A stretch of DNA of 64,000 nucleotides from positions 166,362 through 230,361 of the forward strand of contig CBDCXG010000003.1 of NCBI GenBank assembly GCA_965223685.1. Direction: 5' to 3'. Under the pieces are notes generated by a model. That model did not search any database. It was not told the origin of the DNA and was given only the letters and a program-made list of their open reading frames with translations. Source of the DNA: Nitrospirales bacterium. Its GTDB lineage: Bacteria; Nitrospirota; Nitrospiria; Nitrospirales; UBA8639. The position numbers and the translations under genes were made by a program. Positions 28,401 through 37,659 of this stretch are shown here, in pieces (positions within the stretch are counted from its first letter, which is position 1; every line of letters starts with the position of its first letter).

Positions 28401-29426
28401 TCATATTGCGTGTGTCGTCGTGGTTGGATGTTCCGTCGTTGAACCATTAGCCTCGGCCAACTCTTGATCGAGTTCCGCAAGAACGTCGTTCGTCATGTGC
28501 ACTTTGGTGTTTTCCCCGAATCGTTGAAATATGGCGATCGCTTCACGGTAATACGCGCGTGCGCGGGTGAGATTCTGGACATTGCCTCGCTCAGGGTGCT
28601 CAGGAACATCCGGCACGTTTCGCAGGGCGTTGGCCTTGTTCGAGATCGTATTGGCGTATTCCAGTGGCGTGTCTTGCGGGTTGCGGACCTTTAAGGCTTC
28701 GTCGTACGCCGTCAATGCACGAAGGTTATTCTCGACCGCGTGACTGCTGGATGAGTATTGCAAAGCGTTTCCCAAATTGTTCTGGAGCATCGCGTACTCC
28801 GCAGGATGGTCAATCAGTGTGATCACACGCAGAGCTTCTTCGAACGACTGCACGGCTAGCGCTTCTCGCATCTTGCCATTGTGTTCGGTAGTCGACATAG
28901 ACAAATACGCGGTAGCCAAGTTGTTATGAAGAATCGCGAACTCGGCAGGAAAGTCCTCACGTGTGAAGGTTCGAAGTGCGCGCAAATACGCTTTGATGGC
29001 ATCGGTAACCCGTGCGCGACCTAGCCCAGCTAGGCCCTGAACCGTGAGCCCAAGGTTCATTTCGGCCTCGGCCAATTCCTGTACAGAGCCATGAGTCTTC
29101 AGCCCAGGAATAGCCGATTCAAACGCGGTTTGGGCTTGCAGAAGATATTCGGGGCCATCATGGGGAATGGCATTCAATGCTGTGCCCATTCGGGCTTGCA
29201 CTCGAGCCAACAGCAGCAGATCAGTCGGACTCAGTGACAGAGCTTTTTGATAGAGCGACACCGCATGATGGAGGTCTTGCGGAGATTGCGGTTTTTGCTG
29301 AAGGCCCATGGCGATCTCCATGAGCATTTCCACTTTTTCTGAATGAGTGGCATCCGCGGATTCCACGGCTGCGAACGCGGCTTTGACATTGTGCTCGGAT
29401 AGGCTGGAGTTCATCACGTGATCCAC
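28401..29426 (-). CDS. Tetratricopeptide-repeat protein
   Basis: Repeated helical units (AEAEMNLG, AILHNNLA, AMLQNNLG, ANTISNKA); start uncertain (GTG 29426 or ATG 29414 after GAGGAG). Confidence 0.85.
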   Translation of the reverse strand: MDHVMNSSLSEHNVKAAFAAVESADATHSEKVEMLMEIAMGLQQKPQSPQDLHHAVSLYQKALSLSPTDLLLLARVQARMGTALNAIPHDGPEYLLQAQTAFESAIPGLKTHGSVQELAEAEMNLGLTVQGLAGLGRARVTDAIKAYLRALRTFTREDFPAEFAILHNNLATAYLSMSTTEHNGKMREALAVQSFEEALRVITLIDHPAEYAMLQNNLGNALQYSSSSHAVENNLRALTAYDEALKVRNPQDTPLEYANTISNKANALRNVPDVPEHPERGNVQNLTRARAYYREAIAIFQRFGENTKVHMTNDVLAELDQELAEANGSTTEHPTTTTHAI

Positions 29427-29453: not shown

Positions 29454-29469
29454 TGCGCATCCTATGCCA
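29454..29469 (-). promoter_or_regulatory. Weak candidate sigma54 promoter for the TPR-hyp operon
   Basis: TGGCATAGGATGCGCA has GG-N10-GC spacing but lacks the TT before GC. Confidence 0.3.
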
Positions 29470-29611
29470 TGGACACAAAAAATGTCAACATATTTTTCTA
29501 ATTGCAAAGTTACTTTACATATATGAGTCCTGCAGCTGATATGTCATAAATGTTCATTTGTACATTTTATCATTTTATAGTATTCTTAAACTATTAAAAG
29601 GAAGGAAGACT

Positions 29612-32775: not shown

Positions 32776-34371
32776 TTACCCAATTCGGAAACGTGATAAT
32801 TCCTTCCCATTCTTGGCATCGTGAGCATGTACCGTGCAGACCAAACACGAATCAAAGGAGCGAGCCACATGTCCAACTTCAACCGGGTCCGTCGGATCAG
32901 CGATGGGAGCTCCAATGAGCGCTTCTTCAATAGGACCGCGTCCACCTTCCGCATCACGCGGCCCCACGTTCCACGTTGTCGGAGCAATGATCTGGTAGTT
33001 TTTAATTTTTCCGCCTTTGACATCGATCCAATGACACAACGCGCCGCGAATGGCTTCCGTGGCACCCCATCCCTGGCCATCGATCTCCTGCGGTTTCACA
33101 TACCATGGCTCAGCCAGTTTGAATTCACGTAAACACCGTTCGGCTTGGCGATACAGTTTGATGGTTTCATGCATCCGCGCGAGCTGCCGCAGGTGCAGGC
33201 TGGGTCTGCCCATGTTTTTGTACACGTCTAAAATGAATCCATCAGTATGTTGCCAGTCTTCTCCATGACTTCCGCCAGCTATTAACTGGCGGGAAAATGG
33301 ACCGGCTTCGAGCCGGCCGACTTGAACATGGCGCACGGCCGTAGCCCAGGAGTAGGTGCCGTTGTAATCGGTGTTATTGTTCTGAATCGCTTTAGTCGTT
33401 CGGTCAAACGGATGAACGTCGGCTCCGCCTTCGTCATACCAGGAGTGCGTGGTGTTCTCTCGTAAAAGATCTTGACTCATGAGACTGTGCGTGTCCGTCG
33501 CGCCGTCATAGACTCCGCTTTTCATAATCACTGCGGCTTGACGGCCATCGATCGTGGGTTTTTGATACTTATCTTCATGAGGCAGATACCCCCACGAGAC
33601 GTATTTCCCAAGCCCGCCCCCATATTGATGAAGCCCAATATCCATACCCATCCGCCAATAAAACCCTAAATCGGAATTGGCATGTGCAGGGCTTTCATCT
33701 AACCACGCCATAAAATCGTTATAGGTTTTGATTTCTTCGTACCGTTCTAGGGAGCAGCCTAACCACAACGGTTCCAGCCAATTTGTTTTGTAGTACTCCA
33801 GAATGGACCAAGCTCGGGTGATATCTGAAAGAGTGGGCGCACACATCACCCCCCCAGGAACCATATACGATGAGTGCGGCCATTGGCCGCCCAAGAGCGC
33901 ATAGATTTCCACGGGCTTGCCTGACACCGTCACGCCTATTTCGTAGGATGTTCCTGTGAAGGGTGCAAACCGTTTGCATGCCTCTTCGTAGTATTGATTG
34001 TTTTTATACTTTTTGTTAGTCAGGTCGATAGCATACAGCCCATAGAAATACCGGGGCTGGCTTTGAATGCTTTCCACAAGCTGTCCCAGGTTGCGTGCTA
34101 AAATCGCATTGCGAGGAACCGTGGTTTGCCATGCAGTATCCAGAGCCCACGCCGCGCACGTTAAGTGTGAAGCCCCACAAATGCCACAGGCACGAGGCGT
34201 CACAACCAAACCCGCTTGAGGGTCTTTATCACGCAGAATGATTTCAAAGCCACGAAACAGTTCGGCTTGGGTCCAAGCATTCGTGACGACTCCATTATCT
34301 ATATCAACCCGAACATCCAAATCTCCTTCTACACGTCCTACGGGAGAAATATCTAAGGTTTGTACGGTCAT
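32776..34371 (-). CDS. hupL: [NiFe]-hydrogenase large subunit, group 2a
   Basis: L1 TPRACGICGASH, L2 RSFDSCLVCTVH followed by a cleavable tail; GRVEGDL N-terminus as in cyanobacterial-type uptake hydrogenases. Confidence 0.95.
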   Translation of the reverse strand: MTVQTLDISPVGRVEGDLDVRVDIDNGVVTNAWTQAELFRGFEIILRDKDPQAGLVVTPRACGICGASHLTCAAWALDTAWQTTVPRNAILARNLGQLVESIQSQPRYFYGLYAIDLTNKKYKNNQYYEEACKRFAPFTGTSYEIGVTVSGKPVEIYALLGGQWPHSSYMVPGGVMCAPTLSDITRAWSILEYYKTNWLEPLWLGCSLERYEEIKTYNDFMAWLDESPAHANSDLGFYWRMGMDIGLHQYGGGLGKYVSWGYLPHEDKYQKPTIDGRQAAVIMKSGVYDGATDTHSLMSQDLLRENTTHSWYDEGGADVHPFDRTTKAIQNNNTDYNGTYSWATAVRHVQVGRLEAGPFSRQLIAGGSHGEDWQHTDGFILDVYKNMGRPSLHLRQLARMHETIKLYRQAERCLREFKLAEPWYVKPQEIDGQGWGATEAIRGALCHWIDVKGGKIKNYQIIAPTTWNVGPRDAEGGRGPIEEALIGAPIADPTDPVEVGHVARSFDSCLVCTVHAHDAKNGKELSRFRIG

Positions 34372-34415: not shown

Positions 34416-35378
34416 TTAGACCACAAAAATGTCGTCCTCTGCCCAAGCAGGTGCAGCATTTTTCGCGGCTCCGGTCAGTGCAATATACCCTTTCTTCTCT
34501 ACACCTAGTGGCAGATCTTTGGGAATGCCCATAACCGTTTGAGTTTTAAACACCGTGCCGGGCGCCAGATCAAAGAATGGAAATTCTGGTTCCGTGCAGC
34601 CTAAGCAAGGCATGCCAGCACGCGTTTTAGACGACTGCCGGTTCCACAGAATACGATTACATGGAGAATGGGTCATGGGGCCACGGCATCCGAGATCGTA
34701 GTACAGACAGCCTTTCCGTTGACCAAACTCTGTCGCGGAAACCTTGTAAGCAAAGTGCATGTTTCGCGTGCACCCTGTTTGCGTAAAACTTTGAAAGAAG
34801 GTTTTCGGACGCTGGAATTCGTCTAAAGAGATATCACCACCTCGTCCGGTCGCGACGGCGACCACAATTTGGGTAATCCAATCAGGGTGCGCCGGACAAC
34901 CTGGAACATTAATCACTGGGAGACCGGCTTTCGAACGAAAGTCTTTCCCCAAAAAACCGCCATGGTTTCGTTTAAGAAACTGGAGTCCTTGCGATTCACT
35001 CGGATTCGGTGCGGTAGCAGGAATTCCTCCCCACGTCGCACAATCTCCAATGGCCACGACATAAGAAGCCGCTCCACACAACTCCTGGACCCATTGTTTC
35101 ATGGGACGTCCGGCAAACCGATTCCATTCTCCTGTCCCATTTGGGGCATTCACGACCGTTCCTTCCCACACAAAGATATCCAATGGAATGGCTCCTGACA
35201 CACAGTCTCGTAGGATCTTTTGAAGGTTGTCCCCTAATTCAACGCCCAGTGAGGGATGCCAAAGCACGTTGATCCCAAAATCTGTGACTAAGTCACAGGC
35301 ACTGGGTTCTTCTGCGTTAAGAAACGACATGGTGTTCCCGGAACACGCGCCACCTTGAAGCCACAGTAAATTCGCCAT
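34416..35378 (-). CDS. hupS: [NiFe]-hydrogenase small subunit, group 2a, no Tat signal
   Basis: MANLLWLQGGACSGNTMSFLN (CxxN proximal site), GDCA, GCPAHP, QTGCTRN, CLYYDLGCRGP, CLGC. Confidence 0.95.
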   Translation of the reverse strand: MANLLWLQGGACSGNTMSFLNAEEPSACDLVTDFGINVLWHPSLGVELGDNLQKILRDCVSGAIPLDIFVWEGTVVNAPNGTGEWNRFAGRPMKQWVQELCGAASYVVAIGDCATWGGIPATAPNPSESQGLQFLKRNHGGFLGKDFRSKAGLPVINVPGCPAHPDWITQIVVAVATGRGGDISLDEFQRPKTFFQSFTQTGCTRNMHFAYKVSATEFGQRKGCLYYDLGCRGPMTHSPCNRILWNRQSSKTRAGMPCLGCTEPEFPFFDLAPGTVFKTQTVMGIPKDLPLGVEKKGYIALTGAAKNAAPAWAEDDIFVV

Positions 35379-35490
35379 AAGTGTTCCCCTTTACGATCGA
35401 TAGAAAGAATATTGGTGAATCACATTCATGGTGTAAGTGTAATGACAGTTAGCGTTAGTCGATTCACAAATTGTCTGTCTTCGAAAAGAA

Positions 35491-35506
35491 GGCAAAACCA
35501 GTGCCA
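35491..35506 (-). promoter_or_regulatory. Sigma54 (-24/-12) promoter of hupSL
   Basis: Minus strand TGGCACTGGTTTTGCC matches TGGCAC-N5-TTGC, about 110 nt upstream of the hupS start. Confidence 0.8.
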
Positions 35507-35583
35507 CCTTGTCCTTCCTAACAATACCCAGAGGTGCTTTCATCATTTTGCTAAAGAAATATGGAGTTTTTAATGAACGTGTC

Positions 35584-35610
35584 ATTCGTGTTCGTTGAAA
35601 GAACACGAAT
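35584..35610. promoter_or_regulatory. Perfect dyad, candidate upstream activator sequence
   Basis: ATTCGTGTTC-N7-GAACACGAAT, about 80-100 nt upstream of the -24 box, no U-tract on either strand. Confidence 0.5.
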
Positions 35611-35811
35611 GGGATGGAAGGTAAGCTTACAGTTTCAACGGAAGAGAGAAGAAGAAGTGCAAATCAAGTATGCAAGGTGTTTCTGGAAAATGGAGCAGTC
35701 ACGTCCTTGCTTTTCAATGCGACTCGGTAATCAATCGATCGAAATTGTGAAAAGGGAAAGAGCGATGATGAGATAGTTATCCGGTGGGATTACAGTCTCT
35801 TCCTTGAACGT

Positions 35812-36081
35812 TTATCCATGCCGGTTTCCACATACAGGGCATTCAGCTTCAAGCGTGTAGCCATACCAAATGCCTTCGCACCGACTACACCAGTGGCCAT
35901 TTGTTTGTTCCTCAGTCAAGGATAACTGTTTGGCCAAAGGGGTAATCCCGAGGTTTTTCGGTTGCGGTCTGGAGTAGGACTGAGAAGGTGTTGCGAGATG
36001 AAAGAGACTCGACTCTTGAACATGACGCTTCAAAATGTTGGTTGCTTCTTCATCTCGATCTCTGGCGTCATCCATTAACAA
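35812..36081 (-). CDS. Small protein with C-terminal zinc-ribbon motif
   Basis: HWCSRCEGIWYGYTLEAECPVCGNRHG; starts 4 nt after the activator stop. Confidence 0.7.
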   Translation of the reverse strand: MLMDDARDRDEEATNILKRHVQESSLFHLATPSQSYSRPQPKNLGITPLAKQLSLTEEQTNGHWCSRCEGIWYGYTLEAECPVCGNRHG

Positions 36082-36085
36082 GTTC

Positions 36086-37564
36086 TCACGATTCTGCAGC
36101 GATTAACTGATAACGCTTAATCTTGCTAGCCAATCCGACTCGAGACAAACCCAGTTCTTTGGCTGCCTTGCTTTGATTCCATCGGTGGCGGGTGAGACAT
36201 TGCGTCACGACTAATGCTTCCAATCGTTCAACTTTCTCTTTGAGGGTGCTTGCTTCATTGATATAAGCCTGATCTTGGTTACGAGGGTCCGGCGGCAAAG
36301 CCTGAGCGATTTCCGGGGACAAGTGGTCGACTGACAAGAATTCGCCATTGTTTGTTAACGACACCATCCGACGAATTTCTGTTTCCAACTCCCGAACATT
36401 GCCTGGAAAAGAATAAGCTTGAAAGTGGCGCATGACTTGGACCGAGATACCGGCAATTTTTCGATTGAGAGCTTCGGCATATTTTCGAGAAAGATATTCT
36501 GCTAAGACTGGAATATCTTCCACGCGTTCTCGCAGTGGGGGGAGGTTGATCTCAAATCCACGCAGGCGATAGTACAAGTCTTGTCGAAACTTTCCGGCTT
36601 CCACTAATTTTTTGAGTGAATGGTTAGACGCGACTAATATCCGAACATCAGCATATTGGACCTTTTCCGAACCTAATGGCTTGATTTCTCCTTCTTGGAG
36701 GAACCGTAAGAGGCTGACTTGAAACGAGGGAGAGACTTCAGAGATTTCATCGAGAAAGACGGTGCCACCATCGGCTGCTGAAAAAAGTCCAAGCCGGTCG
36801 CTCACCGCACCGGTAAAGGCCCCGCGTTTGTGCCCGAAGAGTTCAGACTGTAGTAAATCATCCGGCAACGCTCCACAATTTTGTACCAAAAACGGATAGT
36901 CTTTTCGTACACTAAACCCATGGATGGCTTTGGCCATAAGTTCTTTTCCCGTGCCGGTATCTCCCTGAATCAGGACTGGAAGGTCGGTCGGAGCGGCCTT
37001 CTTAGCAAGGTTGCAGACTTCTAACATGGCATCACTGGCAAAGACCAACTTGTCAAACTCGTAACTCTCCCGTAGCAGTTTTACCATGTGATCTTTCGGG
37101 CTACGAAAGGCATTGTCTGAAAATTTCAGTTCCCGACTCAGAATACGATGACGACGGGCTAACTCCCGGCTTTCTAAGGCCCGGTTCACTAACAGCCACA
37201 AATGCCATGGAGGACATGGCTTGGGGATCACTTGATAGACCGCTCCCGCTTTGAAGATTTCCATGACCTTTTTATCATCTCGCGATTCACTCAGAAATAT
37301 ACGAATTGTATCTGGATAATGAACGCGTGCTTCCCTAAAAAAACTCTCTCCGTTTGTATCCGAAACAGCTTCATCAAATAATATGGCATCAATCTCGTTC
37401 TGCCCTAACAGTTCGTTTGCTTCTTTGCCTGTCCCCGCGGTGAGAACTCTATAATCTTTGGAAAGATAGCTGAAGAGGGACTTGCGATTTTTCGCGTTTC
37501 CGTCAACAAGGAGAAGGGTTTCTTCTTTCTTCTCTGGCTTACTTTGCATAAACATCCCTTTCAA
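36086..37564 (-). CDS. Sigma54-dependent enhancer-binding response regulator, HoxA/HupR-like (REC-AAA+-HTH)
   Basis: GDTGTGKE Walker A, ELFGHKRGAFTGA, FLDEI Walker B, FRQDLYYRL, Fis-type HTH; adjacent to hupSL. Confidence 0.9.
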   Translation of the reverse strand: MKGMFMQSKPEKKEETLLLVDGNAKNRKSLFSYLSKDYRVLTAGTGKEANELLGQNEIDAILFDEAVSDTNGESFFREARVHYPDTIRIFLSESRDDKKVMEIFKAGAVYQVIPKPCPPWHLWLLVNRALESRELARRHRILSRELKFSDNAFRSPKDHMVKLLRESYEFDKLVFASDAMLEVCNLAKKAAPTDLPVLIQGDTGTGKELMAKAIHGFSVRKDYPFLVQNCGALPDDLLQSELFGHKRGAFTGAVSDRLGLFSAADGGTVFLDEISEVSPSFQVSLLRFLQEGEIKPLGSEKVQYADVRILVASNHSLKKLVEAGKFRQDLYYRLRGFEINLPPLRERVEDIPVLAEYLSRKYAEALNRKIAGISVQVMRHFQAYSFPGNVRELETEIRRMVSLTNNGEFLSVDHLSPEIAQALPPDPRNQDQAYINEASTLKEKVERLEALVVTQCLTRHRWNQSKAAKELGLSRVGLASKIKRYQLIAAES

Positions 37565-37659
37565 AATGAAAAGAAAGCTTACACATTTATAAAGAATTTC
37601 ACAAGGGTGACATAAAATAAGGGGAGTTCATGGTGATTTGGTGGTCCGCTCCTGGCCCA

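Follow-up and report, generated by a model that had tools for sequence, protein, structure and literature searches.

Group 2a [NiFe]-hydrogenases oxidise H2 down to atmospheric levels in nitrite oxidisers, soil Acidobacteriota and many Pseudomonadota (PMC7784904, PMC9381531), and their control has been described for the Cyanobacteria (PMC2661322) and proposed for the Acidithiobacillia (PMC12194929). Here, we consider the control of such an enzyme in a Nitrospirales bacterium (GenBank assembly GCA_965223685.1), in which the subunit genes hupS and hupL lie downstream of a gene for a sigma-54-type activator resembling HoxA and HupR. The locus was studied in a stretch of 64,000 nucleotides, hereafter the window (contig CBDCXG010000003.1, positions 166,362 to 230,361 of the forward strand). 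Control of this cassette was not found described in the literature that we searched. We think it likely that hupSL is transcribed from a sigma-54 promoter under an activator from a sister family of HoxA, which would bind 17-bp operators and act independently of phosphorylation, and that the genes and their control regions together form a mobile cassette.

The closest characterised relatives of the window activator are HoxA of Cupriavidus necator and HupR of Rhodobacter capsulatus, which have in common with it a receiver domain (REC), an AAA+ domain and a Fis-type helix-turn-helix (HTH) in this order, and whose active form is the one without phosphorylation (PMC10073562). Unphosphorylated HoxA is the activating form, its D55A variant is always active, and the promoters that it serves in C. 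necator are of the sigma-54 type (PMC10073562). Unlike in these systems, the genome of the window has neither a HoxBC/HupUV sensor hydrogenase nor a HoxJ/HupT kinase, the clade of the activator does not conserve the phospho-acceptor residues, the hydrogenase under control belongs to group 2a and not to group 1d or 3d, and a small zinc-ribbon gene obligatorily follows the activator gene. HupR of Thiocapsa roseopersicina works independently of H2 (PMC2661322), but the sensor and kinase genes are present and silent there, whereas here they are absent, and the hydrogenase class differs.

In the Acidithiobacillia, an orphan bacterial enhancer-binding protein (bEBP) of the HupR type is found beside group 2 hupS-hupL genes, HupT is absent and kinase-free action has been proposed (PMC12194929, 2025). 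Compared through the published description, that system resembles the one in the window in its orphan regulator, its group 2 neighbour and its predicted RpoN and HupR sites. It differs in gene orientation, hupR being divergent from hupSL there, whereas the window activator is co-directional with hupSL and a small open reading frame (ORF) lies in between. An orphan HupR beside a group 2 hupSL is thus already published, and a conserved scheme of three operators now replaces the enhancer assignment of the original prediction, in which a perfect inverted repeat (dyad) near hupS was the candidate enhancer.

The hup locus of Nitrospira moscoviensis is an orthologous cassette, with an activator 72% identical to that of the window, the same small ORF, the same pair of sites in the upstream activating sequence (UAS) and the third operator, whereas its sigma-54 box is weaker (TGGTCC-N5-TTGC) and the dyad is absent. 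The papers on this organism term the enzyme encoded by NITMOv2_1639 and NITMOv2_1640 group 2a and mention "regulation" genes at the locus, but not promoter, operator or receiver degeneracy (PMC6606698, PMC9381531). The hup proteins were reported to be constitutively present, with high expression without added H2 (PMC6606698, PMC9381531), and hupS, hupL and the next gene ranked within the top 300 by transcription while nitrite was being oxidised (PMC6606698 and its supplement). HupS and HupL of the window are 93.8% and 86% identical to the products of NITMOv2_1639 and NITMOv2_1640, and the hupL coordinates in our N. moscoviensis locus (L010) match NITMOv2_1640, the published group 2a large subunit. 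We therefore assign the window enzyme to group 2a, based on its 86-94% identity to the characterised enzyme.

The promoter of hupS and the conserved candidate operators

The genes in question all lie on the minus strand, in the order activator (37549..36086, 487 aa), small ORF (36075..35812, 87 aa, starting 10 nt past the activator stop), hupS (35378..34416) and hupL (34371..32776), and the 87-aa ORF is separated from hupS by a non-coding stretch of 433 nt. The sequence TGGCACTGGTTTTGC at 35506..35492, on the minus strand, is an exact match to TGGCAC-N5-TTGC, with the -24 GG at 35505-35504 and the -12 GC at 35493-35492. It sits 113 nt 5' of the hupS ATG (35378), and transcription of hupS is predicted to start near 35480. 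No other exact match occurs in the window; the 4.09-Mb genome (98.8% complete) has 14, versus about 7 expected from composition, and in the 330-nt target between the small ORF and hupS the expectation on the correct strand is about 3e-4. Of 26 promoter loci spanning four phyla, 20 have the box, with no more than one mismatch, at 45-126 nt 5' of the hupS ATG, and the number rises to 24 if a second mismatch is allowed. The genome encodes a single rpoN (C2:1046330-1046812) and 18 bEBPs. The strong -24/-12 box of the original prediction thus holds up, with its position kept upstream of hupS in nearly all of the loci compared, and we conclude that the sigma-54 promoter of hupS is real.

Exact boxes were also seen in two other settings. 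In a metagenome-assembled genome (MAG) of Nevskia (L021:7575-9113), the UAS pair and the exact sigma-54 box are present twice, once after the small ORF and once right before hupS, the two copies being separated by an insert of about 1.2 kb. In the genome of the window, exact TGGCAC-N5-TTGC is found about 4.5 kb past a 3b-type hydrogenase cluster (C3:916887, C3:917177), before a universal-stress-like gene and beside a divergent bEBP.

A comparison of the 260 nt upstream of each box among the loci revealed a 17-bp operator motif, the conserved form of which is TGCAWA-N5-TTTGCA. Sites were scored on the 12 specified bases of TGCAAA-N5-TTTGCA, and those with at least 10 of 12 are expected by chance at about 4e-5 per position. 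The motif is located at -90 to -190 of the predicted start in 25 of the 26 loci. Two sites 28-31 bp apart, which corresponds to about three helical turns, were identified in 20 loci, while the subclade of the window, with the loci L008, L009 and L035, has a spacing of 42-44 bp (about four turns) and L029 has a single site. In the window, the distal member of the tandem pair, UAS site 1, is TGCATACTTGATTTGCA at 35674..35658 (11/12, centre near -186), and UAS site 2 is TGTAAGCTTACCTTCCA at 35631..35615 (8/12, centre near -143), 43 bp from site 1.

The same motif is found at two more places in the cassette. One is the start of the activator gene, where the operator-like site TGTAAGCTTTCTTTTCA (37583..37567, minus strand, 9/12) lies 17 nt before the ATG. 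A single site at 18-75 nt before the activator start codon scores at least 9/12 in 25 of 30 loci and at least 10/12 in 17 of them, and at many of the loci it adjoins a sigma-70-like promoter of the form TTGACx-N16/17-TAnnnT or overlaps with it, which suggests negative autoregulation of the activator. The other is the third operator, TGTAAAGTAACTTTGCA (29519..29503, minus strand, 11/12), upstream of a TPR gene (ATG 29414). It is followed after 14 nt by a sigma-70-type promoter on the same strand, TTGACA-N18-TAGGAT, with the -35 element at 29488..29483 and the -10 element at 29464..29459. A site of at least 10/12 was found at the equivalent position in 16 related loci, and a TTGACA-like -35 element 13-14 nt after it in 12 of the 15 loci inspected. 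Genome-wide there are 13 sites of at least 11/12, two of which, UAS site 1 and the third operator, are located within the hydrogenase island. Given this arrangement, a bEBP-type activator may also act at the sigma-70 promoter of the operon that carries the TPR, accessory and hyp genes. A second sigma-54 box might be read in TGGCATAGGATGCGC near 29468-29454, but we rejected this, as the comparison reveals a conserved sigma-70 promoter, TTGACA-N17/18-TAnnnT, at this position.

The HTH of the activator is almost invariant across the clade, which fits one common operator. With a single motif at three fixed positions in the cassette, a constant activator and a near-invariant HTH, the operator rather than the dyad is the likely site of the activator, and binding to TGCAWA-N5-TTTGCA is the most likely interpretation of the comparative data. 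The layout resembles that of NtrC and NtrC1, where 17-bp dyads (TGCAxx-N5-xxTGCA) are arranged in tandem at an interval of about three helical turns, 100-190 bp upstream of the -24/-12 element. For NtrC, too, an operator covers the sigma-70 promoter of the regulator gene itself, and NtrC1 has a coiled-coil linker between REC and AAA+ that resembles the one in the window activator. The half-site differs (TGCAAA in the window versus TGCACC in NtrC), as does the receiver, which is not a conserved phospho-acceptor here, and the activator has no NtrB-like partner.

The scenario that we favour for the cassette is that hupSL is transcribed from the sigma-54 promoter at 35506..35492 and that this promoter is opened by the dedicated activator, whose gene lies two genes upstream. 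The enhancer would be formed by the operators near -186 and -143, at which the AAA+ ring would assemble and from which it would contact sigma-54 through its GAFTGA motif. Occupancy of the operator over the activator's own sigma-70-type promoter would give negative autoregulation. The third operator would stand upstream of the sigma-70-type promoter that heads the operon of TPR, accessory and hyp genes, about 58 nt from its predicted start. In this scenario, the default state of the activator would be the active one, as for unphosphorylated or D55A HoxA, and modulation, if any, might be exerted via the conserved receiver and linker or via the 87-aa zinc-ribbon protein.

The activator, its receiver domain and the zinc-ribbon protein

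The activator contains the Pfam domains Response_reg (PF00072), Sigma54_activat (PF00158), AAA_lid_14 (PF25601) and HTH_8 (PF02954), with the GAFTGA motif at residues 243-248, and this motif is invariant in the orthologues. The adjacent activator with an intact GAFTGA was thus correctly recognised in the original prediction, and so was its HoxA/HupR-like character. In a plasmid-wide tblastn search, orthologues linked to 2a hydrogenases ranked first (50-56% identity), followed by proteins from Azospirillum (42.0%), Afipia carboxidovorans pHCG3 (41.5%) and C. necator pHG1 (40.7% over 98% of the protein), while generic relatives such as AtoC reached 37%. The proteins ranked next after the 2a-linked orthologues are annotated only as sigma-54-dependent regulators and adjoin hydrogenase genes. 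In C. necator and Paraburkholderia, regulatory-hydrogenase and kinase genes come next after the activator gene, as they do at hoxA, and we therefore treated all four proteins as HoxA-type. Conversely, the best match of C. necator HoxA in the genome of the window is the window activator, with 358 bits versus 278 for the next.

We inferred a maximum-likelihood tree from 54 proteins, namely 32 2a-linked activators, 4 HoxA proteins, 17 other bEBPs of this genome and one AtoC. The 2a-linked clade obtained a support of 100 in the Shimodaira-Hasegawa-like approximate likelihood-ratio test (SH-aLRT), the HoxA clade 97 and the branch joining the two 98. Identity to C. necator HoxA is 40.7%, versus 53-96% within the 2a-linked clade. 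The best solved relatives of the receiver are NtrC1 (E = 7e-12) and, in second place, HupR (E = 3.5e-10). The recognition helix reads ANKIKRY in the window activator, versus RQKLLRF in HoxA, and TGCAAA-N5-TTTGCA was not found in the C. necator promoters P_MBH and P_SH. As these promoters depend on HoxA, we rejected the idea that HoxA shares the operator. The different recognition helix and the lack of the operator in P_MBH and P_SH rather indicate that the 2a-linked activators are a sister family with a specificity of their own.

A perfect TGCAAACCTGCTTTGCA was seen on C. necator pHG1 (L042:10633-10649), between hoxJ and hoxN, upstream of the nickel permease gene hoxN. A search for loci by alignment of generic bEBP peptides yielded mostly unrelated activators and a few, at 42-45% identity, beside HoxBC-like genes. 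In a pseudomonadotal MAG (JBMOQX010000073.1; L030:1-3872), a hoxA-like gene (42%) and then HoxB/HoxC-like genes are located directly upstream of the 2a cassette, so that sensor-linked and 2a-linked activators occur side by side in this genome.

The receiver of the window activator aligns without gaps to that of R. capsulatus HupR (PDB 2JK1). Its Asp59 corresponds to the Asp of the CDQRM motif in HupR, a residue changed to Glu in the variant chain 2VUH, and Ser87 and Lys110-Pro111 are retained, while VDGN stands opposite VDDE in the acidic pocket. The retained Asp, Ser and Lys and the VDGN pocket are as the original prediction had described them. Across the family, the residues concerned are far from fixed. 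The phospho-acceptor Asp is kept in 22 of 30 orthologues and otherwise replaced by E, A, G, H or T; the second acidic pocket residue is kept in 8 of 30, with various replacements; the Thr/Ser in 26 of 30, otherwise L or C; and the Lys in 19 of 30, again with various replacements. Mean identity over the orthologues is 44% for the receiver, 76% for AAA+, 72% for the HTH and 68% for the linker, within which RALESRELARRHRYLSRE is nearly invariant.

A six-frame search of the genome with PF00374 identified the [NiFe] large subunits of the 2a enzyme and of a second enzyme, together with two Nuo subunits. The second [NiFe] enzyme (C3:908253-912439) has four subunits in a group 3b-type layout and hyp genes of its own. 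No HupUV/HoxBC was found, since C. necator HoxB and HoxC match only HupS (41%) and HupL (31%) genome-wide, and there is no HoxJ/HupT orthologue in the genome, C. necator HoxJ matching only generic kinases at 25-30% identity. What had been stated for the window, that it contains neither a sensor hydrogenase nor its kinase, thus extends to the whole genome, and the activator is an orphan at that scale. The non-conserved phospho-acceptor residues in the family and the missing sensor hydrogenase and HoxJ/HupT kinase indicate that control is probably independent of phosphorylation, and a default-on activator is the most likely interpretation. The original suggestion of a regulator that is constitutively on or responds to a signal other than H2 agrees with the degenerate receivers and with the published constitutive expression of hupSL in N. 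moscoviensis.

The best candidate for a partner of the activator is the 87-aa protein, because of the strict linkage between the two genes. Its first 40 residues are freely variable, whereas the last 48 hardly vary across four phyla and form a module, ...NGHWCSRC-x-GIW(F/Y)GYTLE-x-xCPVCGNR-x-G, with a zinc ribbon of the form C-x2-C-x12-C-x2-C. It has 241 homologous clusters, which are named "hypothetical" or, in JGI, carry an automatic "rubrerythrin" label. An AlphaFold (AF2) model of residues 40-87 shows a small beta-sheet and a helix, with a predicted local distance difference test score (pLDDT) of 80-88, and a fold search against the PDB gave no significant match to the small protein, only generic zinc fingers at E > 2. 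The pattern NGHWCSRC-x-GIW was found in 45 of 185,579 species genomes, always within the cassette, and the search returned no Acidithiobacillus match. The activator lies upstream on the same strand in all 42 pattern loci with room for it, and hupS lies downstream of the small ORF in all but one or two of the loci with room.

The dyad and other alternative explanations

The dyad taken as a candidate enhancer in the original prediction is present at an enhancer distance and is slightly longer than described, with perfect arms of 11 bp rather than 10 bp. It consists of CATTCGTGTTC and GAACACGAATG separated by 7 nt, at 35583..35611, with its centre near -117, between the UAS pair and the promoter. 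The window has no match to it within 3 mismatches beyond the dyad itself, and a search of the genome (spacers of 3-11 nt, up to 4 mismatches) returned no further copy with fewer than 3 mismatches, for which reason we rejected the dyad as a member of a regulon or repeat family. The arms are invariant in L008 and L009, where the activators are 96% and 88% identical to that of the window, while in L035 (86%) the region is of equal length but the palindrome is degenerate. The dyad was not found in the upstream regions compared from N. moscoviensis or from copies of the cassette in any other phylum or on plasmids. Folded as RNA, it forms a hairpin of -15.6 kcal/mol (z = -3.7) with no U tract, and as it was not called by a terminator scan either, we rejected an intrinsic terminator. 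We likewise rejected the idea that the dyad is an insertion that displaced the UAS upstream, as L035 has the same length without a clean palindrome and lineage II Nitrospira have similar distances between UAS and promoter without any dyad. Within the 5' coding part of hupS, a further palindrome, GTGTTCCGGGAACAC at 35332-35346, was picked up as terminator-like by the scan and has a GTGTTC/GAACAC core in common with the dyad. It probably represents a coding constraint, since it encodes the conserved CSGNT motif.

Several points weigh against the model proposed here. UAS site 2 of the window is weak and was assigned through homology with L008, L009 and L035. The -24 GG is degenerate in two of the five lineage II Nitrospira loci (L011, L014), a subgroup in which the -12 TTGC and its flank are invariant, and sigma-54 use is thus perhaps not universal in the family, with the doubt confined to this subgroup. 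The tree has few outgroups, namely 17 bEBPs of this genome and one AtoC. Furthermore, the receiver and the linker are still constrained, which argues against a purely constitutive protein and leaves room for another input, and the window protein, with its Asp, Ser and Lys, could be phosphorylated by an unlinked kinase or acetyl phosphate. Finally, the arms of the dyad are kept as well as the promoter and UAS site 1 among the three closest genomes, and the dyad probably does something outside the operator model.

It could be argued that the -24/-12 match is fortuitous or vestigial and that hupSL is transcribed from a sigma-70 promoter, like hupSL of R. capsulatus, where HupR reportedly activates a promoter of that type. 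The same operator does lie upstream of sigma-70-type promoters elsewhere in the cassette, and the two Nitrospira loci with a degenerate -24 GG would fit, but we regard this as very improbable in view of the low chance expectation for an exact box in the short target, its conserved position and sequence across phyla, the invariant GAFTGA of the activators and the finding of no good sigma-70 match between the UAS and hupS. An ordinary response regulator, controlled through phosphorylation by a kinase encoded elsewhere in the genome and hence not truly an orphan, is a stronger competitor, since the window copy keeps Asp59, Ser87 and Lys110-Pro111, the genome encodes many histidine kinases, and receiver and linker are under purifying selection. 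Yet the Mg2+-binding acidic set is D-G-N rather than the D-D-E of HupR, A, E, G, H or T stands in place of the Asp itself in some orthologues, HoxJ finds nothing better than generic kinases, and at none of the more than 60 loci is the cassette accompanied by a kinase gene, so that we consider this explanation unlikely as well.

We regard it as highly unlikely that the adjacent activator binds the dyad as its enhancer, even though a perfect palindrome that is unique in the genome, stands at a normal enhancer distance and has invariant arms in L008 and L009 would be an obvious candidate. The dyad is missing from N. moscoviensis and from the proteobacterial, acidobacterial and plasmid cassettes, and degenerate in L035, while the HTH is nearly the same in loci with and without it and a different motif is conserved at three places. 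Its half-site centres are moreover 18 bp apart, a spacing that is unusual for a Fis-type HTH dimer. We come close to an even chance, though stopping short of it, for the proposal that the dyad is an operator or architectural site at which another factor, specific to the lineage, modulates looping from the UAS to the promoter, or else that it acts as an RNA hairpin and terminates or stabilises transcripts reading through from the activator and the small ORF. Its location between the UAS pair and the promoter, its conservation in the closest genomes and the stable hairpin speak for this, as does a weak sigma-70-like match (ATGACA-16-CATATT, 35585..35558) over the promoter-proximal arm, which is itself at chance level. 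On the other side stand the lack of a second genomic copy that could define a regulon, the missing U tract and the negative terminator scan. With only three carrier genomes, conservation of the dyad is weak evidence, and it may be a site for some other factor, an RNA element or simply a neutral palindrome. The candidate binding site of interest at this locus is the TGCAWA-N5-TTTGCA pair, and the dyad is a separate question.

Distribution and composition of the cassette

A search for relatives with one genome per species identified 34 loci with relatives of the activator, and the order activator, small ORF, hupS, hupL and two small ORFs is kept in nearly all of those that are long enough. The hosts are Nitrospirales, including N. 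moscoviensis, Burkholderiales, Nevskia, Steroidobacteraceae, Alphaproteobacteria and Acidobacteriota, and the small-ORF pattern was also found in a verrucomicrobial MAG (Candidatus Udaeobacter). Copies are located on Bradyrhizobium megaplasmids and on a 28.5-kb mobilizable plasmid of Sphingopyxis alaskensis RB2256. HupS is 88-100% identical over the Nitrospirota, Pseudomonadota, Acidobacteriota and Verrucomicrobiota, but the activator only 51-96% (L008-L036, L132-L174), a difference that suggests either extreme constraint on the small subunit or a recent spread of the cassette. We read the whole unit, from its distribution, as a horizontally mobile cassette. The original prediction had envisaged a 2a enzyme captured by a proteobacterial-style activator, which as a local event does not agree with an activator that is a fixed part of the cassette in several phyla and on plasmids.

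In the window, hupS and hupL were identified by the Pfam families Oxidored_q6 with NiFe_hyd_SSU_C and NiFeSe_Hases, respectively, and the maturation protease was likewise recognised by Pfam. The hupS product begins with MANLLWLQGGACSGN and has no RR motif, which indicates a cytosolic small subunit with no leader for twin-arginine translocation (Tat). Downstream of hupL on the minus strand are two paralogous ORFs of about 105 aa, followed by the maturation protease gene; no Pfam family was found for these two ORFs or for the 87-aa ORF. A toxin-antitoxin pair on the opposite strand is inserted between the protease gene and the TPR gene (29414..28401, minus strand), after which come NifU/Rieske, NHL, hypF, a SIS-domain gene, hypD and hypE.

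A more far-reaching idea is that the one operator works in three modes, as an enhancer for sigma-54, as a proximal site at a sigma-70 promoter and as an autorepressor site, and that the zinc-ribbon mini-protein, rather than phosphorylation, provides the input on a pseudo-receiver. We hold this combination to be doubtful. If it were true, the zinc-ribbon module could report metal, redox or hydrogenase-maturation state, and synthesis of a high-affinity hydrogenase would be coupled to the state of the cell in a new manner, in place of the HoxBC-HoxJ sensor arm.

The regulatory map, which comprises the promoter, the three operator positions, the activator and the linked mini-protein, is common to at least 45 species-level genomes and to several plasmids. 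The carriers of the cassette include the cultivable N. moscoviensis, S. alaskensis RB2256 and Bradyrhizobium. The model of a default-on activator would account for the "constitutive" hydrogenase expression in N. moscoviensis.

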